Shown here: positions 7,987 through 41,825 of the stretch, piece after piece | How the letters are laid out: each line of letters starts with the position of its first letter | How positions within the stretch are numbered: the stretch's first letter is position 1 | DNA from: Rothia mucilaginosa | GTDB lineage: Bacteria; Actinomycetota; Actinomycetes; Actinomycetales; Micrococcaceae | DNA length: 64,000 bases | Strand: one strand, 5' to 3' | Assembly: GCF_963539245.1 (NCBI RefSeq) | Contig: NZ_CAUTJW010000010.1 | Made by a program: the position numbers and the translations under genes | The notes under the pieces: model-generated | Seen by the model: only the letters and a program-made list of their open reading frames with translations | What the model was told of the DNA's origin: nothing | Database searches by the model: none

Positions 7987-8104
7987 CGATTTTCCTTTCG
8001 CGAATGATCGGGGACACGATCGGGTTTGGACCCTGCACCCCGCGCGCCGCCTCCTGATGCCTTCTGCGTTCGGTGGTGGCCTTCGTGCAGGTGGCGCGTT
8101 CGCG

Positions 8105-8212
8105 CCGTACTTGCCTCATTCCGTTGAGGCCAGATCATCATCTGGGGCACCCCGCTACGGGAGAGGGTTGCCGCCCGGCTAGCCAGAGCTTAGCGCCGGG
8201 ACTCATGATCTC
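8105..8212 (-). promoter_or_regulatory. SAM-IV riboswitch in the 5' leader of the LLM monooxygenase gene
   Basis: The minus-strand RNA reads GAUCAUGAGUCCCGGCGCUAAGCUCUGGCUAGCCGGGCGGCAACCCUCUCCCGUAGCGGGGUGCCCCAGAUGAUGAUCUGGCCUCAACGGAAUGAGGC. It matches the SAM-IV consensus as I remember it almost block for block (GGUCAUGAGU..CCGGCAACCCUC..GGGGUGCCCCGGGUGAUGACC plus a 3' hairpin). Confidence 0.85.
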
Positions 8213-8385: not shown

Positions 8386-8482
8386 AAACCATCCAGAGCG
8401 ACTGAGAGACCTGGCTCCACGACGTCGCAGCAACCGGCACGGATTCTTCCGCCTCCCGGTGCTAACGCCAGGACCGATGGAA
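8386..8482 (+). promoter_or_regulatory. SAM-I-clan riboswitch (SAM-I/IV-like, no P4 evident) in the leader of the ABC importer operon
   Basis: The RNA reads CCAUCCAGAGCGACUGAGAGACCUGGCUCCACGACGUCGCAGCAACCGGCAC..CCGGUGCUAACGCCAGGACCGAUGG. It contains the S-box core blocks AUC-AGAG, GAGAGA/CUGGCUC, GCAACC and GGUGCUAA, and the P1 pair CCAUC/GAUGG. The 3' P1 strand abuts GGAAG and ATG 8488. Confidence 0.75.
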
Positions 8483-8487
8483 GTGAC

Positions 8488-11585: not shown

Positions 11586-11720
11586 AAACCATCCAGAGCG
11601 ACCGAGAGACCTGGCTCAATGACGTCGCAGCAACCCCCTCGCCAACGCACACACAGACCCCACGGTCACACAGACAGCGGCACGGCAAGCAAGGGTGCTA
11701 ATGCCAGCAACCGATGGGAG
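11586..11720 (+). promoter_or_regulatory. SAM-I-clan riboswitch immediately upstream of acs
   Basis: The 5' half CCAUCCAGAGCGACCGAGAGACCUGGCUCAAUGACGUCGCAGCAACC is nearly identical to the element at 8386. A longer P3 follows, then GGGUGCUAAUGCCAGCAACCGAUGGGAG. The 3' P1 strand overlaps the GGGAG SD of ATG 11725. Confidence 0.7.
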
Positions 11721-29296: not shown

Positions 29297-30448
29297 CTAT
29301 GCCTGATGCGCCAGGGCTGCGGTCAGGCCGCGCTCCAAATCCTCGATAATGTCCTCAATCTCCTCGATGCCGATGGCCAGGCGGATGAGGTTGTCGCTCA
29401 CGCCGTATTCGTCGCGGTGCGCTTGCGTGTAGGCGGCCTGCACCATGAGCGCGGGACGAACCACCAACGACTCGATACCGCCCAGGCTCACCGCGTGGGT
29501 GAAAATCTTCAGGGCTTCGAGGAAGGCGGGCAGGTCTGTGCCGTCCACCAGCTCCATGGAGATGAGCGCGCCCAGGCCATTCGCCTGGCGGGCATGCACC
29601 TGCGCCTCATACTCGCTGTGCGAACCCGCGTAGAGCACGCGCTTCACGGCGGGATGCGCCTCCAGGTAGTTGATGACCTCGATGGTGTTCTTCTGCTGCT
29701 GGGTCAGGCGCAGCTTGAGGGTCTTGACCTCCTGCAGCAGGCGGTAGGAGTCGGTGGGCGAAAGCATTGCGCCGGTAATCATCTGCAGGTGCCAGAGGCG
29801 CTCGGCGAGCGCGTCATCGTTGGTTGCGGCGACGCCTCCGAGTAGGTCGGCGTGGCCGCCCAGGTACTTGGTGGCGGACTGCACGCTGATGTCTGCGCCC
29901 AGGTCGAGGGGCTTCTGCAGCAGCGGGGTCATAAAGGTGTTGTCGACGACCACGATTGCGCCGTTGCGGTGCGCGATTTCGGCGATGGCGGCGATGTCAC
30001 TCACACGCAGCAGCGGGTTGGAGGGGCTTTCCAGGAAAACCATGGTCACATTATCTGCGAAGTCCTCGTCGGTGAGGGCCGTGAAGTCGCCGATGAAGCG
30101 GGTCTTGACGCCGCGGGCGGGCAGCTCAATGGTGGCGAATCGGTAGGTGCCGCCGTAGGAGGGCATACCCAGCAGTAGAGTTTCGCCTTCTTTCAGGATT
30201 CCGAGGGCGGCAGCGGTGGCGCCCATTCCAGAGGGGTAGGCGAAGGCGTGCTTGGCGCCTTCGAGGGTTGCGAGCGTGATTTCGAGGGCCGCGCGGGTGG
30301 GGTTGCCGCCGCGCTGGTAGTCGTAGGGGCCTTCGGTGCCGTCACAGGGCTGGGCGTAGGTGGTGGTCGTGTAGATCGGAGGCAGGATGGAGCCGTACGG
30401 GTTGTCGCGGTCCGTAGTGTGAATTGCCTTCGTCGTGAATCCGGTCAT
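29297..30448 (-). CDS. Cys/Met-metabolism PLP-dependent enzyme, paralog 2
   Basis: VQSATKYLGGHADLL and YQRGGNPTR are present, and the sequence is colinear with paralog 1. Confidence 0.85.
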   Translation of the reverse strand: MTGFTTKAIHTTDRDNPYGSILPPIYTTTTYAQPCDGTEGPYDYQRGGNPTRAALEITLATLEGAKHAFAYPSGMGATAAALGILKEGETLLLGMPSYGGTYRFATIELPARGVKTRFIGDFTALTDEDFADNVTMVFLESPSNPLLRVSDIAAIAEIAHRNGAIVVVDNTFMTPLLQKPLDLGADISVQSATKYLGGHADLLGGVAATNDDALAERLWHLQMITGAMLSPTDSYRLLQEVKTLKLRLTQQQKNTIEVINYLEAHPAVKRVLYAGSHSEYEAQVHARQANGLGALISMELVDGTDLPAFLEALKIFTHAVSLGGIESLVVRPALMVQAAYTQAHRDEYGVSDNLIRLAIGIEEIEDIIEDLERGLTAALAHQA

Positions 30449-30823
30449 GCTGTCCTCGGCTAAGGTTGGGCATAAAATGCGGGGATAAATACACTGCTAG
30501 CTTAGGGCTCTTTTGGGGTACTGACTAGTTTTTTCTTTTCTGTGACCGAGTGACTTTTTATGACCGAAAAACGGCGTTATATTTCGACATTTTAGACATA
30601 TATTTCGTCATATTTCGCGTGAAAAGGCCCGGCGGTCGGTACGCGTGTGTGCTGAGTACCGGCCGCCGGGCTCCACACTAGGATACCGGTTCAGCACCCC
30701 AGAACATAGAGGTAAGGTTTACCTCAAAGCTAAACCGCCCTCCACAAGGGGCGATGCTGCACCCTCAATCTCGCCTAGAACGCACCGGATGCTCCGCCGG
30801 GCACTACATTAGGCGCTATATCA

Positions 30824-30882
30824 GGCATAGATAGAAGGAGGGGGCGCACCCGGGAATCACCCCGGGTACGCCCCCCCTCTCT
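30824..30882. repeat. Hairpin repeat copy A
   Basis: It reads GCATAGATAGAAGGAGGGGGCGCACCCGGGAATCACCCCGGGTACGCCCCCCCTCT and contains the stem GGAGGGGGCG.ACCCGGG / CCCGGGT.CGCCCCC.CTC. Confidence 0.8.
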
Positions 30883-31155
30883 TAGTCCTATAAGAGCATC
30901 GGTGTTATATAAGGTATTTCCTCTGGTCTTCCAGTGAAGGCAGAAATACGCTTGATTCCTTGGGCAAAACCGCTGCTCTCCTTACTTCGGTTCGCCGTAG
31001 AACCGAACATAAAAAAGGACCCCCTCGAGATGCGCTTAGGTAAACCCAGAGGCGGAGGGGGGACTGTTACTACAACAATAACATTGGAGCTACGCGCTCT
31101 CAAGGGATCTGGGCGTTTTCCCTGATTACCTTATGCTTGCTTATCTCACTGTGTC

Positions 31156-31212
31156 AGCATCAATAGAAGGAGGGGCGTACCCGGGAATCACCCCGGGTAC
31201 GCCCCCCTCTTT
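31156..31212. terminator. Hairpin repeat copy B; probable terminator of the metY/CoA-binding operon
   Basis: It reads GCATCAATAGAAGGAGGGGCGTACCCGGGAATCACCCCGGGTACGCCCCCCTCT and is about 90% identical to copy A. It lies about 80 nt downstream of the minus-strand stop at 31294. Confidence 0.75.
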
Positions 31213-31293
31213 CAAACACTCACAAGTTCAAACGCTCACAAGCGCCTAATTTTTTGTAATTACAAGCCGCAGCGGCTCAACAGCACAGGCTGC

Positions 31294-31800
31294 TTACTTC
31301 GACAGCACCTGACGCTTCGAAGAAATCACACCCGTGTTGAAACCAGCCAGGTGCAGGCCACCGTGGAAACGCGCGTGCTCAATCTTCACGCACTTATCCA
31401 TCACCACGTTCAGGCCGGCAGCCTCACCAATCGCGGCAGCCTCCTCATTCCAGGAGCCCAGCTGCATCCACACGGTCTTCGCGCCCAGATCCACAGCCTC
31501 CTGAACCACGCCCGGCAGGTCCTCATTACGGCGGAAAATCTCCACCAGATCCGGGACCTCCGGCAGGTCCTGCAGCGACGGGTACACCGGCTGACCCAGC
31601 ACAAGCTTGCCCTTCGCAGCCAGAATCGGGTTCACAAAGTACAGCTTGTACGGCGAAGCCGACTGCAGGTACGTCGCCACAAAGTACGAAGCACGCGAAA
31701 TCTTATCGCTCATACCCACAATCGCGATGGTGCGGGTGTTACGCAGAATGTTCAGACGCTCAGGGGCGGAAGGACCCACCCAGGTACGCTTCTCAGTCAT
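31294..31800 (-). CDS. CoA-binding domain protein (YccU-like)
   Basis: The 168-aa product has IAIVGMSDKISRASYFVATYL. A TAATG overlap links it to the metY stop. Confidence 0.8.
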   Translation of the reverse strand: MTEKRTWVGPSAPERLNILRNTRTIAIVGMSDKISRASYFVATYLQSASPYKLYFVNPILAAKGKLVLGQPVYPSLQDLPEVPDLVEIFRRNEDLPGVVQEAVDLGAKTVWMQLGSWNEEAAAIGEAAGLNVVMDKCVKIEHARFHGGLHLAGFNTGVISSKRQVLSK

Positions 31801-33260
31801 TACTTTTCCTCCTGAGTGGTAGTAGGCAGGGAGCAGGATGCGCCAGCAGCAGCCTCAGCGGCGGCAGCGTCCTCGGCGGCCTTAGCGGCGGCAACCGCCT
31901 CCTCAGCCTCCACAATCTTGTCTGCGCTGGACTCACCCACGCGCTCACCGGCGTGGTTCAGGCCGGTCGCGTAGGTCAGTGCCTGGTCCAGGTCCCAAAT
32001 GATGTCTTCAACATCTTCCAGACCCACCGAAATACGGATCAGGTCCTCGCCAACACCACCAGCAGCCAGCTGCTCAGCGGTCAGCTGCTGGTGCGTGGTC
32101 GAACCCGGGTGCAGCACCAGGGTACGAGAGTCACCAATGTTCGCCAGGTGGCTTGCCAGCTGCAGCGCGCCGATGAACTCGCCACCGACCAGGCGGCCGG
32201 ACGCCTTCTCGGTGCCCTTGACACCGAAGGAGAACACGGAACCGACACCCAGCGGCAGCAGCTTCTTCGCGCGCTCGTGGTGCGGGTGGTCTTCCAGGCC
32301 GGCGTAGTTCACGTAGGCGATACGCTGATCCTCAACCAGCCAGGCGACAACCTGCTTAGCGTTCGCCAGGTGCGCATCCATGCGCTGCGGCAGGGTCTCA
32401 ACACCCTGCAGCAGGTTGAACGCGGCCTGCGGGCTCAGCGACGGGCCGAAGTCACGCAGCTGCTCAGAACGCAGCTTGGTCAGGAAGCCGTACTCACCGA
32501 AGTTACCCCACCAGGACACGCCGTTGTAGGAGGGAACCGGCTCGGTCATGGACGGGAAGTTGCCGTTACCCCAGTTGAAGCGACCGGACTCGACGACGAT
32601 ACCGCCGAGGGTGGTGCCGTGACCGCCCAGGAACTTGGTGACCGAGTGGATAACGATGTCCGCACCGTGTTCGAGGGGACGGATCAGGTAGGGGGTGGAC
32701 AGGGTTGCGTCCACGACCAGGGGGATGCCCGCCTCGTGTGCGACCTCTGCGAGGCCTTCCAGGTCGGCAACCTCACCGGAGGGGTTCGCCACAATCTCGG
32801 TGTAAATCGCCTTGGTGTTCTCGGTCAGTGCCGCCTTGTAGTCGGCGGGGTCGGTGCCGGGCACGAAGGTGGTCTCAATGCCGAAGCGGCGCAGGGACAC
32901 GTCCAGCTGGGTGACGGTGCCGCCGTACAGCTGCGAAGAAGCAACAATGTGGTCGCCCTGCTGGCACAGAGCCGCGAAGGTGATGAACTCGGCGGCCATG
33001 CCGGAGGCGGTCGCTACCGCACCAATACCGCCTTCGAGGGAGGCGATGCGCTCCTCCAGGGCTGCGACGGTCGGGTTGGACAGGCGCGAGTAGATGTTGC
33101 CGTACTTCTGCAGGGAGAAGAGGTTCGCGGCGTCGTCAGCGTCTTTGAAGACGAAGGAGGTGGTCTGATAGATGGGGACCGCGCGGGCACCGTGCTCAGC
33201 GTCGGGGGTGCCGCCCGCGTGTAGTGCGCGGGTGCGGAAGCCGAAAGTGTGTTCAGCCAT
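31800..33260 (-). CDS. metY: O-acetylhomoserine sulfhydrylase/aminocarboxypropyltransferase with an Ala-rich C-terminal tail
   Basis: FGFRTRALHAGG, the PLP-lysine motif HSVTKFLGGHGT and IEDVEDIIWDL are present. The start was set at ATG 33260 (MAEHTF). About 50 extra C-terminal residues are rich in A/E. Confidence 0.9.
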   Translation of the reverse strand: MAEHTFGFRTRALHAGGTPDAEHGARAVPIYQTTSFVFKDADDAANLFSLQKYGNIYSRLSNPTVAALEERIASLEGGIGAVATASGMAAEFITFAALCQQGDHIVASSQLYGGTVTQLDVSLRRFGIETTFVPGTDPADYKAALTENTKAIYTEIVANPSGEVADLEGLAEVAHEAGIPLVVDATLSTPYLIRPLEHGADIVIHSVTKFLGGHGTTLGGIVVESGRFNWGNGNFPSMTEPVPSYNGVSWWGNFGEYGFLTKLRSEQLRDFGPSLSPQAAFNLLQGVETLPQRMDAHLANAKQVVAWLVEDQRIAYVNYAGLEDHPHHERAKKLLPLGVGSVFSFGVKGTEKASGRLVGGEFIGALQLASHLANIGDSRTLVLHPGSTTHQQLTAEQLAAGGVGEDLIRISVGLEDVEDIIWDLDQALTYATGLNHAGERVGESSADKIVEAEEAVAAAKAAEDAAAAEAAAGASCSLPTTTQEEK

Positions 33261-33393
33261 TGGTTTGCTCCTGGTGTATCTGCCCGCCTGCGTGCGGGGA
33301 GTCGATAGTGGCTCGACTTTATACTGTGCCACCAGCGGCGGGGTGCACCAAGTGCGGGTACCTATATGTCGTTTATTGCGGATTATGACGGGC

Positions 33394-33420
33394 GGGGTTG
33401 AGGCTTATAACCTCAACCCC
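33394..33420 (-). terminator. Hairpin just downstream of the island gene
   Basis: GGGGTTGAGG-CTTATAA-CCTCAACCCC is a perfect 10-bp stem lying 19 nt past the minus-strand stop at 33439. Confidence 0.65.
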
Positions 33421-33438
33421 ACCTACCACTGCACTGCA

Positions 33439-34905
33439 CTATTCTGCAGGGTCCGGCTCTTGCTCGGGTCCCTGTTCTTCTTTCACATACCCTGCATCAT
33501 CCAGAGGGGAAAGATATTTCTCAAATTCATAATTTTTACCAATTAGACGATTCCGTAAAACTCCAGGCTTAACACCAAGCCGCACCCCAACCCAAGAGAC
33601 AATAATAATCTTTAACATATCAATTGCCTCAAAGACTGCATCGTAATTTATCTCTTCCCCACCGTAATGCTTTACTGAATTGTAAGCATTATTAATCTTA
33701 TCTGGCCATTCAGGAAGGTTATGTAACACTTTCTCATTCATATCTCCCTCATCTTTTCTCACATATGGTAATACACCTTCAGAGATTTGATTAATGATGT
33801 TTTGCAGAGCTCCTTTTAGATATGCCCTACCTTTATCAGTGAAAGATTCCTCAGGGAAATCAACCGCAATATATCTTCCGAGTGCCTCAACCCCAGAACA
33901 TAGGTTGAAGAGCTCATTTTCAACCACTCCATTACCCCACCTAATAGTAGCCAGAATCGGATTTAAAGCACGGGGATATTTTTTAGAAATCTCAAGCCAC
34001 TTTTCAAATCCATTAGATTCAATGTCATTGTATGTAAATATAAAATCTTTATTATTAACATCAATATTTTTAGTCGTCTCCCACCGCTCTGAAATAACAT
34101 TTCTCCATGCCCTACCATCCGAATCTCCCTTATCCTCTTCATGAGAGACGGAGATTGAAATAAATTTATGAACACTCCATGAAGAGACCATCATCAAATC
34201 TCTAATTGCATCATGATATTTCATAGCATCATCAAATGAAATTTCTTGATTGCAATACATCTCAAGACAGTCACGAGATTCATATACAACTCTAGTCGAC
34301 GAGTTATTGGGTATAACCGTAAAATTGGATTTAAATTTCATCCCTGATGCTTCATCAAGCAGAATCTCTCCAGCAGACACAGCCTTTGTCTCCACCGAAT
34401 TTACATGAGGTAGACCATCTATATTCTTGTATGTGAGACACGTTTTTAAGGTGCTCATCTGGAACCATTGGGATAGATTCTCGATCTCCGTCCGGTAGCC
34501 ATTAAAACAATTTGTATTGTATTTTCGTGATGAAAAGATTGCTGCCCCTACTGAGACTTTTTGAAGGACCCCGCCAAGACTCCTAAAAATATTAAACATT
34601 TTCTCTCTATATCCAGATATCCTACAATCCGCAAGAAGAACCAGGCCACGGTCATCCATAAAATACATATTATTAGGAACGTTATATTGATATTTTGTTC
34701 GATCCGGGTCATCGCTATAGAACGTTCCCTCCGTCCCCCACCGAGCCGCCGGAGATGAAGAATAACGGCTTTCCACCGGAATAAGAGCTTGGACTCGATG
34801 TCCATCGCGCACTAGAGTAGCCGGGATTCCCTTCCCTTCTTTTACCTCACCGGGGTATAACCACCCCACTCTAACCTGGCCAACCTCAAGAGTATTATTA
34901 GACAT
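33439..34905 (-). CDS. ApeA-like protein: ApeA-type N-terminal domain plus helical HEPN-like C-terminus (candidate single-gene anti-phage effector)
   Basis: The 488-codon ORF is clearly open, in DNA of about one-third G+C. The start ATG 34905 lies 6 nt after GGAGG. The N-terminus reads LEVGQVRVGWLYPGEVKEGKGIPATLVRDGHRVQALIPVE ... DDRGLVLLADCRISG. The C-terminus is helical, with NAYNSVKHYGG at the position expected for a HEPN Rx4-6H motif. The family call rests on remembered patterns only. Confidence 0.55.
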   Translation of the reverse strand: MSNNTLEVGQVRVGWLYPGEVKEGKGIPATLVRDGHRVQALIPVESRYSSSPAARWGTEGTFYSDDPDRTKYQYNVPNNMYFMDDRGLVLLADCRISGYREKMFNIFRSLGGVLQKVSVGAAIFSSRKYNTNCFNGYRTEIENLSQWFQMSTLKTCLTYKNIDGLPHVNSVETKAVSAGEILLDEASGMKFKSNFTVIPNNSSTRVVYESRDCLEMYCNQEISFDDAMKYHDAIRDLMMVSSWSVHKFISISVSHEEDKGDSDGRAWRNVISERWETTKNIDVNNKDFIFTYNDIESNGFEKWLEISKKYPRALNPILATIRWGNGVVENELFNLCSGVEALGRYIAVDFPEESFTDKGRAYLKGALQNIINQISEGVLPYVRKDEGDMNEKVLHNLPEWPDKINNAYNSVKHYGGEEINYDAVFEAIDMLKIIIVSWVGVRLGVKPGVLRNRLIGKNYEFEKYLSPLDDAGYVKEEQGPEQEPDPAE

Positions 34906-35012
34906 TTGCAACCTCCCCTTTCTAAAGAAGATTAATAACTAACGAAATTACATATATTACATATAGAATTTTTATACAAGAATTATCTATATCGAGCTTG
35001 TCATATCAGGCG

Positions 35013-35057
35013 TCATAACAACTGTCATAACAGAAGTTGTTATGACGATTGTTATGA
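35013..35057. repeat. Symmetric 4-half-site array 1 of the octamer TCATAACA
   Basis: TCATAACA occurs at 35013 and 35025, and TGTTATGA at 35038 and 35050. The gaps are 4, 5 and 4 nt. A degenerate TCATATCA sits at 35001. Confidence 0.9.
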
Positions 35058-35145
35058 TGTGCAATCAATCAGTGCCGATAAAATACCCGGTTTTAGCCTG
35101 CAAATCCTGGGTTTTCAAGACTCAAGGCGCGAGGAAAATATCGCA

Positions 35146-35210
35146 TCATAACAACATCATCGCAGGATCATAACAACTTCATAACAGAAATTGTTATGAT
35201 GCTGTTATGA
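35146..35210. repeat. Symmetric 4-half-site array 2 of TCATAACA plus one extra upstream copy
   Basis: TCATAACA occurs at 35146, 35168 and 35179, and TGTTATGA at 35192 and 35203. The gaps within the core are 3, 5 and 3 nt. Confidence 0.9.
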
Positions 35211-35263
35211 CGTTGCGAAGAATAAATTCACAACATTCCTGCATAAAGTTGTACCGCTAAGTT

Positions 35264-36184
35264 TTAGCCGCAGGACCATTCAAAGGCAACATTGGTGAAG
35301 TCGCGGGCGGCAAGCGCCTCCGGGGTAATCAGCCAGTTCGCCGCACCGGCATCACCCCACATAATCTCAATCTCATCGTCTTCGTTCTCCTCATTCTCCG
35401 ATTCAGAGACGATAGTCAGCAGGTTCACCGTGTGGCCGCGCAGCTCCTTGAACTCTTCACGCGGGTCATTCTGCACGAAGAACGGGTATCCGCCCACGTG
35501 GGAGTATTCTTCCTCCGATTCGAAGGGCTCCGTCAGCTCGTAGAGTGCTTCGCGGCGTGCCTGGTTCTTATACGGGTTCTCGTGTGCTTCGGGCAACTTC
35601 TCGTCCGGGTAGATTTCATCCCACTTCGCACCAAAAACATCGTAGTAGTCGTAGCCGGAGGCGGTCACACCCTGCTCACGCACCTCAAAGGTCATGCCGT
35701 ACTCAAGCTCAAGCGGGCCGCTCTCACAGTCGAAACCGCCGATGGGCCAGCCGCCCTCGTCCCAGTCCACGTTGGGGAACGGAGCATCCGGGTTCGGCTC
35801 ACCCAGAGTCTCGTAGTAGATAACACGGAAGTTCTTCTGCGAGGTCGGGTTCTCATAATCAAAACCCCACAAGCATTCTTCGTCGTTCGGGTCCATCCAG
35901 AACTGCAGCAGACCGGTGGCGGGGTACAGGTCATTCTCGGGCAGCTCAGCGCAGTTAATCTGCGCGATCATACCCAGCGGCTCACCCTTCTCATTGGTCG
36001 GCGCAGACTCCCCGGCAGGCAGGTACGGGCGGCCACCAAACTTGGAAGCGGTCTGCGGCAGCGGTTCGGCGGGCACGAAGGGCTTCAGCGCGATAGCCTT
36101 CTTGCGGGCGCCCTCCTGGTTGAGCAGGTCGATAACGTGCTTCGCCTGCTTCTCAATGTCCTTGAACGGCTTGTTGTCGAGCAT
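35264..36184 (-). CDS. DUF1963 (YwqG-like) family protein, paralog 1
   Basis: SKFGGRPYLPAGE...MIAQINCAELPENDLYPATGLLQFW and the C-terminal GGYPFFVQNDP...MWGDAGAANW are the characteristic DUF1963 blocks. Confidence 0.8.
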   Translation of the reverse strand: MLDNKPFKDIEKQAKHVIDLLNQEGARKKAIALKPFVPAEPLPQTASKFGGRPYLPAGESAPTNEKGEPLGMIAQINCAELPENDLYPATGLLQFWMDPNDEECLWGFDYENPTSQKNFRVIYYETLGEPNPDAPFPNVDWDEGGWPIGGFDCESGPLELEYGMTFEVREQGVTASGYDYYDVFGAKWDEIYPDEKLPEAHENPYKNQARREALYELTEPFESEEEYSHVGGYPFFVQNDPREEFKELRGHTVNLLTIVSESENEENEDDEIEIMWGDAGAANWLITPEALAARDFTNVAFEWSCG

Positions 36185-38527: not shown

Positions 38528-39781
38528 ATGACCCAACAGACCACCACCTCTTCCGGCCCCGCCGTCAGCGAAGCTTCCCTGGCGAAAATTCGTGCCCTCT
38601 CTGCTTCTTCGGACGCCGTATCTGGCGCCTCTTCGGGCGGCCGGGGCGGCAAGTCCATCTCGCGCCTGGCGGTTGCGCTCATAATTGGCGGCGTTCTGCT
38701 GGTACTGCTCTGTGCCCTGTCATTTGCGGTGGGTTCGCGCATGTTCGCCCTGGACCGCTCCATTGACGGTTTCCTCCACCCGGAGGCGAACACCATCGAG
38801 TCGAAGCTGATTTGGGCGAAGCGTGCCCCGCGTACCGCCGCGGCGTTGCTGGTCGGTGCCGCGTTGGCGGTGTCGGGTGTGCTCATGCAGGCGTTGAGCC
38901 GTAACCCTCTGGCTGAGCCGGGCCTGCTGGGTGTGAATTCGGGTGCTGCCGCCTCCGTGGTGGTGGGTGTGGGCGTTTTTGGGGTGTCGTCCCCGTTCGT
39001 TCAGCTGTGGCTGGCGCTACTGGGTTCGGGTCTGGCGGCGGCGCTGGTGTTCGTCATGGGTCTGGTAGATTCTAAGCCGAACCTGGATTCGACGGCGCGT
39101 CTGGTGCTCACGGGTGTGGCGGTGAATGCCTGCCTGGGCACGATTACCGGCATTATCACGATGTTTAATTCGAGGGCTTTTGACTCGCACCGTTTCTGGG
39201 TGGTGGGTTCGCTTGAGAACCGCACCTTTGAGCAGGTGCTCTCGGCGCTGCCCTTTGTGGCGTTGGGTCTGGTGCTGTCGTTCATGCTGATTGGTCCCCT
39301 GCGTGCCCTGGCGCTCGGTGAGGATGCGGCAGCCGGCCTAGGCGTGCCGGTGACGCTGGTGCGTGGCGCGACGATTATTGCGATTATGGCGCTGTGTGGT
39401 GCGGCGACTGCGATTGCGGGCCCGATTGGTTTTGTGGGCCTGGTTGTACCGCATGTGGTGCGTCTGCTGGTGGGTTCCGATATTGCGCGCGTGCTGCCGC
39501 TATCGCTGGTGTACGGACCCGTGTTGGTGCTTGCCGCCGATATTTTGGGTCGCGTTCTGGTCATGCCCAGTGAGCTTGAGGTGGGTATTGTGACCGCCTT
39601 TATTGGTGCCCCGGTGTTGATGGTTCTGGTGCTGCGTTTGAGCACCGGCGCGCGCGGCGCGAAGAAGAGCCGCATGGGTAAGAAGGCGCAGGCGCACGAG
39701 GAGGCGGGTCCGCCTCACGTGTCGGAGCACGGTCTGCATCGTGCTCACCGCCCCGTTCTGCGTGGTTCATCTGGTTCGTAG
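38528..39781 (+). CDS. Iron-siderophore ABC permease (FecCD family) with N- and C-terminal extensions
   Basis: The FecCD blocks RTAAALLVGAALAVSGVLMQALSRNPLAEPGLLGVNSGA and IAGPIGFVGLVVPH are present. It is divergent from the binding-protein gene. Confidence 0.85.
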   Translation: MTQQTTTSSGPAVSEASLAKIRALSASSDAVSGASSGGRGGKSISRLAVALIIGGVLLVLLCALSFAVGSRMFALDRSIDGFLHPEANTIESKLIWAKRAPRTAAALLVGAALAVSGVLMQALSRNPLAEPGLLGVNSGAAASVVVGVGVFGVSSPFVQLWLALLGSGLAAALVFVMGLVDSKPNLDSTARLVLTGVAVNACLGTITGIITMFNSRAFDSHRFWVVGSLENRTFEQVLSALPFVALGLVLSFMLIGPLRALALGEDAAAGLGVPVTLVRGATIIAIMALCGAATAIAGPIGFVGLVVPHVVRLLVGSDIARVLPLSLVYGPVLVLAADILGRVLVMPSELEVGIVTAFIGAPVLMVLVLRLSTGARGAKKSRMGKKAQAHEEAGPPHVSEHGLHRAHRPVLRGSSGS

Positions 39782-39806
39782 GTCCCGGTTTCTGAGAGGT
39801 TTTATT

Positions 39807-40844
39807 GTGAGCGTTGTATCTCGTTCTGTAGCCGGTTCTGTGCGTATCCCGGGGCGTTACCGCACCCCTATTCCGCGTACCCTGCTGGTGGTGGCGGTGC
39901 TTGTGGCGGCGGCGGCCGCCTCCCTAGTGTTTGGTAGTTATCAGATGAGCCCTGATCAGGTGTTTCGCCTGATTTTTCAGGGTGAGGGCACGGAGATTGA
40001 GCGTCAGCTGGTGTTGAATCAGCGTCTGCCGCGTATGCTTGCCGCCGTGGTGGTGGGTGCAGCTTTGGGCTTGTCGGGCGCTATTTTTCAGTCGGTTTCG
40101 CGTAATGCTCTGGGTTCGCCGGATATTATCGGTTTCACGGTGGGTTCGGCTACCGGTGCCCTGTCGGTGGTGCTGATTGGGTCGTTGAGTTCTACCGGTG
40201 TGGGTATGGGCATGGGCGCTATTATTGGCGGTTTTGCGACGGCGGCTGTGGTGATGCTTCTGGCGGGTGCGCGCGGTGGCGCGACGATGGGGCAGAAGAT
40301 GGTGCTGATTGGTATTGCGGTGAGTGCAATGCTCAGTTCGGTGAATGATTACCTGATTACGCGCGGTGATTTGGAGAAGGCGGAGGCGGCGAAGACCTGG
40401 CAGCACGGTTCGCTGAATGCTCTGTCGTGGAATCAGATGTCGGTTCAGGCGGTTCTGCTGCTGGTGGCTATTCCGCTGGTTCTGTTGTTGACGCGCCGTC
40501 TGCGCACCCTGGAGCTCGGCGACGATTTGGCGGCGGGTTTAGGTTTGCCGGTGAAGAAGACCGTGAACCTGCTGGTGGCGGCTGCCGTGCTGCTGGTGGC
40601 TGTGGCGATTTCTGTTGCGGGTCCGATTGGTTTCTTGGCGCTGGTTGCCCCGCAGATTGCGCGCCGCCTGTGGAATACTCCGGGTACGGCGATGTGGCAT
40701 TCGGCGCTGTTGGGGTCGGTGATTTTGGTGCTGGCTGATTTTGTGTCGGCTCGTGCGTTGGCGCCGTTCCAGATTCCGGTGGGCCTGGTGACGGGCGCGT
40801 TGGGTGGCGCGTACATGCTGTGGCTGCTGTACCGTCAGCGCTAG
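39807..40844 (+). CDS. Iron-siderophore ABC permease (FecCD family), second subunit
   Basis: RMLAAVVVGAALGLSGAIFQSVSRNALGSPDIIGF and VAGPIGFLALVAPQ are present. The start was set at GTG 39807 behind GAGAGG. Confidence 0.8.
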   Translation: MSVVSRSVAGSVRIPGRYRTPIPRTLLVVAVLVAAAAASLVFGSYQMSPDQVFRLIFQGEGTEIERQLVLNQRLPRMLAAVVVGAALGLSGAIFQSVSRNALGSPDIIGFTVGSATGALSVVLIGSLSSTGVGMGMGAIIGGFATAAVVMLLAGARGGATMGQKMVLIGIAVSAMLSSVNDYLITRGDLEKAEAAKTWQHGSLNALSWNQMSVQAVLLLVAIPLVLLLTRRLRTLELGDDLAAGLGLPVKKTVNLLVAAAVLLVAVAISVAGPIGFLALVAPQIARRLWNTPGTAMWHSALLGSVILVLADFVSARALAPFQIPVGLVTGALGGAYMLWLLYRQR

Positions 40845-40870: not shown

Positions 40871-40906
40871 ACCGGGTGTTCCCCACTGTGGGGGCACCCG
40901 GTTTTC
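40871..40906 (+). terminator. Rho-independent terminator
   Basis: The hairpin is ACCGGGTGTTCCCC-ACTGT-GGGGGCACCCGGT, followed by TTTCTG. Confidence 0.7.
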
Positions 40907-41141
40907 TGTATTTCACGGGGTTTCACCGGGTTTCGCGGGTGGTTTCAGAGGCGATTGCAGAGGCGGTTTCAGATTTTTCAGAATTTTCCCAGTTTTACCC
41001 CGGGGTAGATTAAAAACTGCTTATCGTGTCAGGGGTCGCTCATAGAGTGTAGGTGTTGGAAGGGACGATCCTTCCGACCGGGCACGCCGTCTCCTGCGGT
41101 GTTGCCACTAGGTTGATTCAGCATCTACGGAAGGAACGGTC

Positions 41142-41825
41142 ATGGACAACACCACTCACGAGAGCCAGTACGCAAACGCAGAGATTTCCTGCACCGCCGA
41201 TGAGCAGCTGTGCCGTGATGCAGAGTTCAACCTGCTGATGCAGGCGGGCACCATTGTTCGTATGGAGCGTTTCAACGTGGATGAGCTCCGCGGCGTTCTG
41301 GAGCAGCTGGTGGCTGACGGTTCGTGCTTCCGCACCGCGCCGGCGTCCTCGACTATGGGCCGCGTGATGCGTCACCTGACTCAGGGCGCTTCCGGTTACG
41401 AGGCGAACCTGGCTGAGCTGCGTGCGGCGGCGCAGAACGCTCTGCTGTTCGTGTTCCCCCTGGAGAAGGACCTGGAGATGTGCCTGCGCTTTGAGCGTGT
41501 GCAGGGTACCGGTCTGGCGTTGACTCGCCTGGGCGTGAGCCCGGTCAATGGTGACCTGTGGACTCAGCACTGGGCGATGCGCGCGCTGGAGTGCACTGGC
41601 GGCGTGTTTGCGGTGGAGTCCGCTCCGGGTGCCTGCAATTTTGAGCTGCGCCGCGAGATGTTCTACGCGATGCTGTCGCTGGTTGAGCTGTCGACTTTGG
41701 GTCTGTCGGCTGAGCCGGAGGACTTCTACATGTTTGCCGATTCGGAGGCCGTGTGTAAGAAGTTTAAGCGTGAGCGTCGTGATTGCCGCCGCGCTATGCG
41801 TGCCCAGTACGACCGCGCCGCATAA
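41142..41825 (+). CDS. Hypothetical cytoplasmic protein
   Basis: The 227-codon ORF has native composition, and a GGAAGGAACGG SD-like stretch lies upstream. I recognise no family. Confidence 0.55.
   Translation: MDNTTHESQYANAEISCTADEQLCRDAEFNLLMQAGTIVRMERFNVDELRGVLEQLVADGSCFRTAPASSTMGRVMRHLTQGASGYEANLAELRAAAQNALLFVFPLEKDLEMCLRFERVQGTGLALTRLGVSPVNGDLWTQHWAMRALECTGGVFAVESAPGACNFELRREMFYAMLSLVELSTLGLSAEPEDFYMFADSEAVCKKFKRERRDCRRAMRAQYDRAA

Follow-up and report, generated by a model that had tools for sequence, protein, structure and literature searches.

A pair of phased octamer arrays in Rothia mucilaginosa, probably the orphaned control region of a Schlafen-type gene

A 64,000-nucleotide stretch of Rothia mucilaginosa DNA (contig NZ_CAUTJW010000010.1), referred to here in its whole length as the window, contains two arrays of a short octamer, TCATAACA, and its inverted form, TGTTATGA, in the intergenic region between an ApeA-like gene and a DUF1963 gene. 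Comparison with related genomes suggests that these arrays are the cis-regulatory (operator-promoter) region of a gene encoding a prokaryotic Schlafen (pSlfn) protein with a HisKinase-like ATPase and a winged helix-turn-helix (wHTH) domain, left orphaned in this strain after removal of that gene, a reading to which we assign a probability of about 0.6. We regard the arrays as a Schlafen control region because they are single-copy and syntenic in Rothia, adjoin such a gene in relatives, recur in front of homologous genes across the family, and carry a conservation footprint on the repeat units.

Layout, distribution and conservation of the arrays

Nine exact octamers were found on the two strands of the window, all inside 35013-35210 and none elsewhere, at the very coordinates listed by an earlier description made from the letters of this DNA (the sequence-only reading). 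In dinucleotide-preserving shuffles of the window (n = 100), the mean copy number was 0.79 and the maximum 3, and 0 of 100 shuffles reached nine. The gaps between exact units (4, 5 and 4 nt in array 1; 3, 5 and 3 nt in array 2) likewise agree with that description, as do the near-identical inner palindromes of 21 nt (35025-35045 and 35179-35199), which lie 154 bp apart, differ at one central base and, with up to three mismatches allowed, are the sole two of their kind in 64 kb, where 0.1 would be expected. Three degenerate units, TCATATCA at 35001, TCATCGCA at 35157 and TCACAACA at 35228, stand in phase with the exact ones, and array 1 is therefore made up of three direct and two inverted units, and array 2 of four direct and two inverted units followed by a stub (Table 1). 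The stub is the start of a third inverted unit that is whole (TGCTATGA) in genomes retaining the downstream Schlafen gene. Spacing of 11-13 bp throughout bears out the proposal that the half-sites are helically phased.

When the 64 kb was divided into 798 windows and searched with a detector of repeat chains (8-mers with at most one mismatch, in steps of 8-14 bp), only 3 had chains of at least four units, arrays 1 and 2 being two of these. The third site, at 40905-40995, consists of about seven direct (G/A)TTTCA(C/G) repeats spaced 10-13 bp apart and is unrelated to the arrays; on one side of it is the end of an ABC permease gene (39741-40844; relatives of this gene have FecCD-family neighbours) and on the other a 227-aa open reading frame (ORF) at 41142-41825 that has no Pfam match. 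Rfam and tRNA scans gave no match at the arrays themselves. A 38-codon ORF starting at 35056, between the arrays, was rejected because 1-nt insertions and deletions break its frame in the alignment with locus L008, and the occurrence of TTTTAGCC at both 35092 and 35261, considered as a duplicated DUF1963 end or target-site duplication, was dropped since the match extends over only about 8-10 nt.

The sequence-only reading had proposed a motif search of related genomes, and one genome per species was scanned with the pattern TCATAACA-N3-5-TCATAACA-N4-6-TGTTATGA. Twelve loci were returned. Eleven were in Rothia, including R. mucilaginosa, one per assembly and each with both arrays about 150 bp apart, and the twelfth was a single triplet in a cyanobacterium; the motif marks a unique site in each Rothia assembly and not a repeated mobile element. 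In all 11 Rothia assemblies the 216-bp block 35001-35216 (35001 or 35009 to 35216 in blastn) lies between metY and DUF1963, and the array block is a single-copy syntenic feature of the Rothia mucilaginosa group.

The low-GC island carrying the ApeA-like gene is present in only some of these assemblies. In loci L002, L007, L008, L009, L012 and L013 the block adjoins the homologue of position 33392 with the ApeA island absent, and a different segment of 1.7 kb lies between array 2 and DUF1963; L004 and L011 have the block with neither the island nor the Schlafen segment, and L005 and L006 are arranged as in the window. Alignment to the island-free loci L008 and L013 gives an island extent of 33393-35000, with the edge falling exactly at the outermost unit of array 1. 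Because the block is present in island-free Rothia genomes, it is a core-genome element and not part of the island, and the alignments show the ApeA island as an independent insertion at the outer edge of the array block. That the arrays evolved as the operator of the island is not upheld: in island-free genomes the same block stands directly upstream of a Schlafen winged-helix gene that is absent here. As a side observation on this locus, L011 (5283-7154, and also L004 beyond 6743) contains low-GC cargo after a 265-bp 3′ fragment of DUF1963; a fragmented large-serine-recombinase N-terminus comes first, a DNA_alkylation/HEAT protein is also encoded, and the cargo is a third kind of foreign insert at this locus.

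All aligned genomes are alike through ...TGTTATGACGTTGC (35216) and then fall into two classes. In class A, which has the Schlafen gene (L002, L007-L010, L012, L013 and L080-L094), the sequence continues with TATGACG..., completing the third inverted unit, and a leader of about 35 bp is followed by the Schlafen gene on the plus strand. Class B, which is without the gene, comprises the window, L004, L005, L006, L011 and L165-L169. Here the arrays are joined to the DUF1963 stop codon by 47 bp of unrelated sequence that is conserved among these loci. This 47-bp joint was sought downstream of the Schlafen gene in L013 and was not found there, and a clean deletion of the gene was rejected for that reason in favor of a replacement.

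Conservation was measured as pairwise identity over 19 Rothia sequences, with class B represented by five aligned genomes. Unit positions were 95.7% identical in class A and 96.5% in class B, against 80% and 77%, respectively, for the inter-array DNA, and in these alignments the units carry a clear phylogenetic footprint. This pattern of about 96% identity in the units versus 77-80% between them indicates that the arrays behave as protein-binding sites and not as a structure or mobile element, in line with the sequence-only reading, and the cooperative binding of a multimer that it envisaged would be the most economical interpretation of the layout.

The Schlafen-type gene and the arrays of its homologues

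In most of the Rothia assemblies, at loci L002, L007-L010, L012 and L013, an ORF of 533 aa on the plus strand starts about 35 bp after array 2. Its protein matches Pfam SLFN_AlbA_2 (PF04326, E = 1.3e-13) and HATPase_c_4 (PF13749, E = 7e-22) and contains the motif AENGRVEVK, that is, E18-x4-E23-x-K25, which fits the Ex4(E/D)xK catalytic motif of prokaryotic Schlafen nucleases (PMC13056530, Nat Microbiol 2026). In a profile built from 15 homologues, the last 80 positions match the MarR regulators TcaR and AdcR (E = 1e-4 to 7e-4), and an AlphaFold model (mean predicted local distance difference test score, 76) has a confident H-H-H-beta-beta winged helix at residues 470-532. Foldseek matches include DIP2311 (Protein Data Bank entry 3lmm), Schlafen N-terminal domains, histidine-kinase catalytic domains, and winged-helix proteins, ZitR and Zur among them. 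Because of these Pfam domains, the motif, and the profile, model and Foldseek matches, the product is assigned to the "pSlfn HisKinase-HTH" class, with a predicted Schlafen nuclease, HisKinase-like ATPase and C-terminal MarR-like winged helix. The proteins of this class described in PMC13056530 have the same domains as the Rothia gene (PF04326, HisKinase-like ATPase and helix-turn-helix, HTH) together with Ex4(E/D)xK, and the class makes up 19.2% of the 5,930 pSlfns surveyed there. That study showed phage defense for other pSlfn classes; among the HisKinase fusions it lists the HisKinase architecture as tested and not HisKinase-HTH, and it mentions "HTH" twice, both times in the domain census, without discussing the role of the HTH or upstream repeat arrays. 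A literature search on COG2865, HATPase_c_4, AlbA_2 and PF04326 found no characterized bacterial member of the class and no account of the arrays.

Arrays of this kind were also found in front of homologous genes. Another Rothia species contains two Schlafen-wHTH paralogues, P0029 and P0025, that flank the DUF1963-metY-CoA-binding block (L077:1922-5685 and L070:577-5542) and each have their own array variant, a divergence of the units between paralogues within one genome. Upstream of P0025 (61% identity) are two arrays in direct-then-inverted order, with units TC(A/T)TCACA and TGTGATGA, ending about 40 bp before the ATG, and upstream of P0029 (50% identity) are arrays of TCATACTA and TAGTATGA. 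A Gulosibacter homologue in an unrelated context is preceded by five TCTTCACA units, all direct. For a wider sample, 80 metagenomic loci with homologues were fetched, of which 51 non-redundant loci were analyzed by scoring the 160 bp upstream of the start codon. Chains of at least four units were present in 19 of the 51 and of at least three units in 32, and none of 102 in-gene control windows rose above two units. Examples include three direct and three inverted units of ACTTACCA and TGGTAAGT, or two separate arrays of GGAGTGTT or ACACTACA. In the plasmid database only distant homologues were found, one in a BREX operon that has no upstream intergenic region and one in a Firmicute without a clear array, and a lenient palindrome scan of viral contigs returned 56 isolated single palindromes, which are chance-like and uninformative.

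Homologue arrays share a layout in which 8-bp units recur every 10-12 bp, first in direct and then in inverted orientation, and the array stops 0-70 bp short of the start codon. Across the family an array region holds 4-14 units, often in two arrays, the second lying 115-155 bp upstream depending on the homologue. The unit sequence varies by homologue around a common core, TGnnA(A/T)Gn read toward the gene, of which the Rothia TGTTATGA is one variant. In several homologues the array extends to the start codon and is for that reason partly transcribed, and in several the last unit brings a TANNNT hexamer to -12 to -7 from the ATG, a position that would suit leaderless transcripts. Because no other gene was consistently adjacent to the arrays across the contexts examined, the conserved unit is taken to be the arrays plus a Schlafen-type gene.

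In orthologous and paralogous loci, then, the arrays stand immediately upstream of a gene for a winged-helix protein, a gene absent from this window, and we infer that the Schlafen winged helix binds the arrays and represses its own gene. A single winged helix from the protein that the gene encodes would contact each 8-bp unit, and the spacing of 11-12 bp would put the bound domains on one face of the DNA, allowing a cooperative oligomer to assemble. The two arrays, 154 bp apart, might be bridged by a loop that adds cooperativity. Occupancy of the gene-proximal units would occlude the promoter and hold the toxic nuclease at a low, self-limited level (negative autoregulation), an occlusion proposed because -10-like hexamers lie in these units, which stop 0-70 bp short of the start codon. 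Bound protein may also affect metY in island-free genomes, or ApeA in the window, as a side effect, since array 1 overlaps the -35 of metY and abuts the ApeA promoter-like site.

Several results weigh against a Schlafen control region. The regulator is absent from the window, where tblastn found no homologue of the Schlafen protein anywhere in the 64 kb, and about one-third of the metagenomic homologues have no array by the chain detector. The units are equally conserved in the class B genomes (96.5%), though the non-unit positions there have diverged by about 22%, and a purely orphaned autoregulatory site is not expected to stay so conserved; possible explanations are a trans-acting reader such as a paralogue, service to neighboring promoters or another function, or recombinational refreshment from gene-bearing strains. 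A promoter scan requiring a -35 hexamer called no sigma-70-like promoter toward the Schlafen gene in the L013 intergenic region. In our own reading, TGTTATGAT at 35192-35200 and 35050-35058 could serve as an extended -10 (TGnTATGAT), which the scan, with its need for a -35 hexamer, did not call. Finally, the units of the three Rothia paralogues and Gulosibacter are distinct (TGTTATGA, TGTGATGA, TAGTATGA and TGTGAAGA), a difference inseparable from phylogeny, and a specificity code between recognition helix and unit, sought in 33 protein-motif pairs, is confounded in the same way and is not claimed.

The paralogue slot of the other Rothia species corresponds to 30440-31300 in the window, and a search there for a second array or paralogue found only a GC-rich palindromic pair. 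This pair consists of two copies of an element of about 45 nt (…GGAGGGGGCGYACCCGGGAATCACCCCGGGTACGCCCCCC…) at 30833-30882 and 31166-31210, enclosing about 290 bp on the downstream side of the CoA-binding gene. Window positions 30877-31163 are missing from several Rothia loci, and in other loci this slot holds an Abi_2 (PF07751) gene (L162:1317-2321 and L165:7935-8927); the region looks like a second hotspot for defense genes.

Neighboring genes and other readings of the arrays

The arrays are flanked by the island gene and the DUF1963 genes, as stated in the sequence-only reading (Table 1). Two DUF1963 genes lie on the right, and genes for a metY-like pyridoxal phosphate (PLP) enzyme and a CoA-binding protein on the left. 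In the GC profile, the flanking genome has a GC content of about 62%, against about 38% for 33393-35000. Because the island protein passes the curated Pfam cut-offs for both ApeA domains, ApeA_NTD1 (PF18862, 56.1 bits, cut-off 25.5) and HEPN_Apea (PF18739, 30.3 bits, cut-off 24.4), the island gene is classified as an ApeA-type HEPN defense gene; PADLOC gave only a weak match, to PDC-S58. ApeA is reported to be an antiphage protein that cleaves tRNA. Within Rothia, the protein identity of ApeA alleles falls from 95% to as little as 53% (relatives P0121-P0240), and the gene looks either fast-diversifying or swapped as a cassette between conserved flanks. The absence of a DNA-binding gene from the island, pointed out in the sequence-only reading, is correct.

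The Schlafen gene, to the right of the arrays, and ApeA, to the left, were never found together in the sampled loci (L002-L013, L080-L094 and L162-L169), a sample that is small and not independent, and two loci have neither. An ApeA variant of 70% identity, P0201, is indexed in 279 blocks; in each of the five loci read it fills the same slot, with the arrays present and the Schlafen gene absent.

In island-free genomes, array 1 starts 10-56 bp past the homologue of 33392 (about 70-115 bp upstream of the metY GTG), varying by genome. The 410-bp intergenic region of L013 contains a single sigma-70-like site, ATGACA-18-CATAAT (10/12), on the minus strand toward metY, with its -35 hexamer ATGACA within array 1. 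In the window the island parts the two hexamers (-10 CATAAT at 33382-33387, -35 ATGACA at 35023-35028). Because the island splits the sole promoter-like site upstream of metY in island-free genomes, metY in this strain must, on this comparison, be transcribed from elsewhere or by transcription that runs on from ApeA. For ApeA itself, the best upstream promoter-like site takes its -35 hexamer from the outermost unit of array 1; it is no more than a match to the consensus in an AT-rich region, and shuffles yield 1.7 such sites per region. A secondary effect of the arrays on the island gene is possible.

These sites underlie the alternative that survives best, which we entertain as a tentative one, namely that the arrays are an operator of ApeA, and ancestrally of metY, read by a trans-encoded regulator that would be either a Schlafen-wHTH paralogue or an unrelated host factor. 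Such an operator is suggested by the overlap of array 1 with the -35 hexamers of both the ApeA and the L013 metY sites, by the 96.5% conservation of the units where the Schlafen gene is missing, and by how widespread the combination of ApeA and arrays without that gene is. An operator for the island gene was the leading proposal of the sequence-only reading, and it is compatible with an origin of the arrays as a Schlafen operator. However, there is no candidate regulator in the 64 kb, the arrays are kept in L004 and L011 without either ApeA or the Schlafen gene, array 2 is more than 150 bp from both promoters, and the arrays accompany Schlafen homologues whatever their neighbors. Units are also missing from the vicinity of the window's other Met/Cys genes. 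An operator of a methionine regulon is unlikely, as those genes lack the motif and carry S-adenosylmethionine (SAM) riboswitches, and the arrays track Schlafen homologues and not metY. The riboswitches above the Rfam gathering thresholds are one SAM-IV and two SAM-I, at 8102-8210 (minus strand), 8386-8483 (plus) and 11586-11720 (plus).

A further idea, which we consider doubtful, is that the arrays act as a DNA platform, beyond any role as a repressor site, where ordered oligomers of the Schlafen-ATPase-winged-helix nuclease are kept inactive next to the gene that encodes them. Events brought about by infection, such as DNA damage, DNA-mimic proteins or altered supercoiling, would then free or activate the nuclease, and the HTH of this class, the second most abundant among bacterial Schlafens, would be part of the sensor. 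If this were so, conservation of the units in strains with ApeA in place of Schlafen would point to a second reader of the platform, or to shared control of alternative tRNA-targeting defense genes at this hotspot.

It is improbable that the palindromes act as nucleic-acid structure, whether as an RNA hairpin (a DUF1963 terminator or an element of the Schlafen 5′ untranslated region) or as a DNA cruciform. Each array does form an imperfect inverted repeat of 19-20 nt, array 1 contains two terminator-like pattern matches, array 2 includes some symmetric changes (such as TCATGACA...TGTCATGA in L005, L006 and L011), and part of the array is transcribed in those homologues where it reaches the start codon. 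Yet covariation does not rise above background, with hairpin pairing in 94.3% of cells compared to 94.0% when the 3′ letters were shuffled (147 of 500 shuffles reached the observed value), and at three stem positions pairing fails in 6-11 of the 18 sequences. The extra direct units at 35001, 35146 and 35157 have nothing to pair with, the AT-rich stems lack a U-run, there is no Rfam match, and the Gulosibacter array consists of direct repeats only. Nothing in these comparisons points to a conserved structure, in RNA or DNA, other than what repeats in two orientations would form anyway.

Iterons are typically direct repeats of 17-22 bp. A mobile-element or replication feature (a miniature inverted-repeat transposable element, MITE, or foldback element, arm-type attachment sites for a recombinase, or an iteron origin), all of which the sequence-only reading had kept as alternatives, is very improbable, despite the short repeats in both orientations, the two independent breakpoints at or inside the arrays (35000/35001 for the island and 35216/35217 for the gene loss) and the locus being a hotspot for insertions of foreign DNA: each of the 11 Rothia assemblies has a single copy, always in the same syntenic position, with no dispersed copies and no target-site duplications at the block flanks; each array is itself a palindrome and not an element end; the two island junctions have no direct repeat, the ApeA island has no recombinase and there is no tRNA gene; no integrase, transposase or rep-like gene is adjacent in any locus state, barring the serine-recombinase fragment in the unrelated L011 cargo; the units are of 8 bp at 11-12 bp spacing, with inverted copies included; and arrays precede Schlafen homologues in unrelated chromosomal contexts.

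Table 1. Features of the array region and its neighbors, in window positions unless a locus is named
Feature	Position	Strand	Description and basis
Exact TCATAACA	35013, 35025, 35146, 35168, 35179	+	Direct copies
Exact TGTTATGA	35038, 35050, 35192, 35203		Inverted copies
Array 1	35001..35057		Five 8-bp units, 3 direct and 2 inverted; spacing 12-13 bp
Array 1, direct units	35001, 35013, 35025		TCATATCA at 35001 (degenerate); TCATAACA at 35013 and 35025
Array 1, inverted units	35038, 35050		TGTTATGA
Inter-array spacer	35058..35145		88 bp; conserved core CCCGGTTTTAGCCTGCAA-TCC-GGGTTTT; less conserved than the units
Array 2	35146..35216		4 direct and 2 inverted units, plus 3-nt stub of a third inverted unit; spacing 11-13 bp
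Array 2, direct units	35146, 35157, 35168, 35179		TCATAACA at 35146, 35168 and 35179; TCATCGCA at 35157 (degenerate)
Array 2, inverted units	35192, 35203, 35214-35216		TGTTATGA at 35192 and 35203, then TGC, the start of the third
Breakpoint between classes A and B	35216..35217		blastn synteny, alignments
Class B joint	35217..35263		47 unrelated bp leading to the DUF1963 stop codon; near-unit TCACAACA at 35228
Low-GC island	33393..35000	-	One gene, its leader/promoter region (34906-35000) and a distal-end hairpin (33391-33423)
ApeA-like HEPN gene	33439-34905	-	Pfam
DUF1963 gene	35264..36184	-	Convergent on the arrays; Pfam DUF1963, E = 3e-60
metY-like gene (Cys/Met PLP enzyme)	31800..33332	-	Pfam Cys_Met_Meta_PP, E = 4e-122; GTG start at 33332
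Ancestral metY -10 hexamer CATAAT	33382..33387	-	Homologous window sequence GGATTATGACGGG at 33380-33392
Best promoter-like site upstream of ApeA	34982..35009	-	CTGATA-16-GATAAT (9/12); -35 hexamer in outermost array 1 unit
Schlafen gene	L013:5532-7133	+	ORF and Pfam
P0001-like recognition helix			SRTSITNDLR...PTAPPRSKNRKYR

Significance and comparison with known systems

Bacterial Schlafen nucleases have only lately been shown to be antiviral; in the literature found, the role of the HTH in the HisKinase-HTH class, about one-fifth of pSlfns, is unaddressed. A conserved and easily spotted cis-element upstream of these genes offers a concrete DNA target for work on binding, autoregulation, looping and release on infection. 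The picture of this locus is also corrected, with the repeats a core-genome control region and not a part of the island, and with two alternative RNase-type defense genes on opposite sides of the arrays, Schlafen, whose homologues in other classes cleave tRNA, and ApeA, for which tRNA cleavage is reported. Phased short-repeat operators are of a known kind, the closest parallels being ParR/parC, the omega heptads and autoregulation of the AbiEi/BrxR type. The systematic link of arrays with diversified units to HisKinase-HTH Schlafen genes appears to be new, as does a conserved orphan copy of the array flanked by an alternative defense gene, and full-text literature searches found neither described.

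Among regulators of defense genes, AbiEi and BrxR/CapW likewise have inverted repeats upstream of a defense gene, presumed cooperative binding by a winged helix encoded in cis, and negative autoregulation. Their sites are one or two long inverted repeats (about 20-23 bp), and regulation usually falls to a separate protein or to an N-terminal domain devoted to it. In contrast, the Schlafen arrays have 4-14 short units of 8 bp at one-turn spacing, and the candidate winged helix is the effector's own C-terminus.

The layout itself is closer to ParR/parC of plasmid R1 and the omega/heptad arrays of pSM19035, which likewise have many short, helically phased units in two clusters around a promoter. 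The omega system mixes direct and inverted orientations, and in both systems binding is cooperative and doubles as autoregulation. ParR and omega are ribbon-helix-helix proteins, and their arrays are plasmid centromeres, whereas the candidate binder of the Schlafen arrays has a MarR-like winged helix joined to nuclease and ATPase domains in one protein, and the arrays are chromosomal and without partition genes.

With the MarR family the likeness lies in the protein, as TcaR and AdcR are profile matches to the Schlafen C-terminal domain, and ZitR and Zur are fold matches. A MarR dimer binds one palindrome of 16-20 bp by way of a dimerization helix pair, whereas this pair is absent from the Schlafen protein and the arrangement of the units and the multidomain build are different. 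The best structural match to the whole model (Foldseek E = 3e-18), which is also a match by sequence profile, is DIP2311 of Corynebacterium diphtheriae (3lmm), a structural-genomics entry without an assigned function or DNA target.

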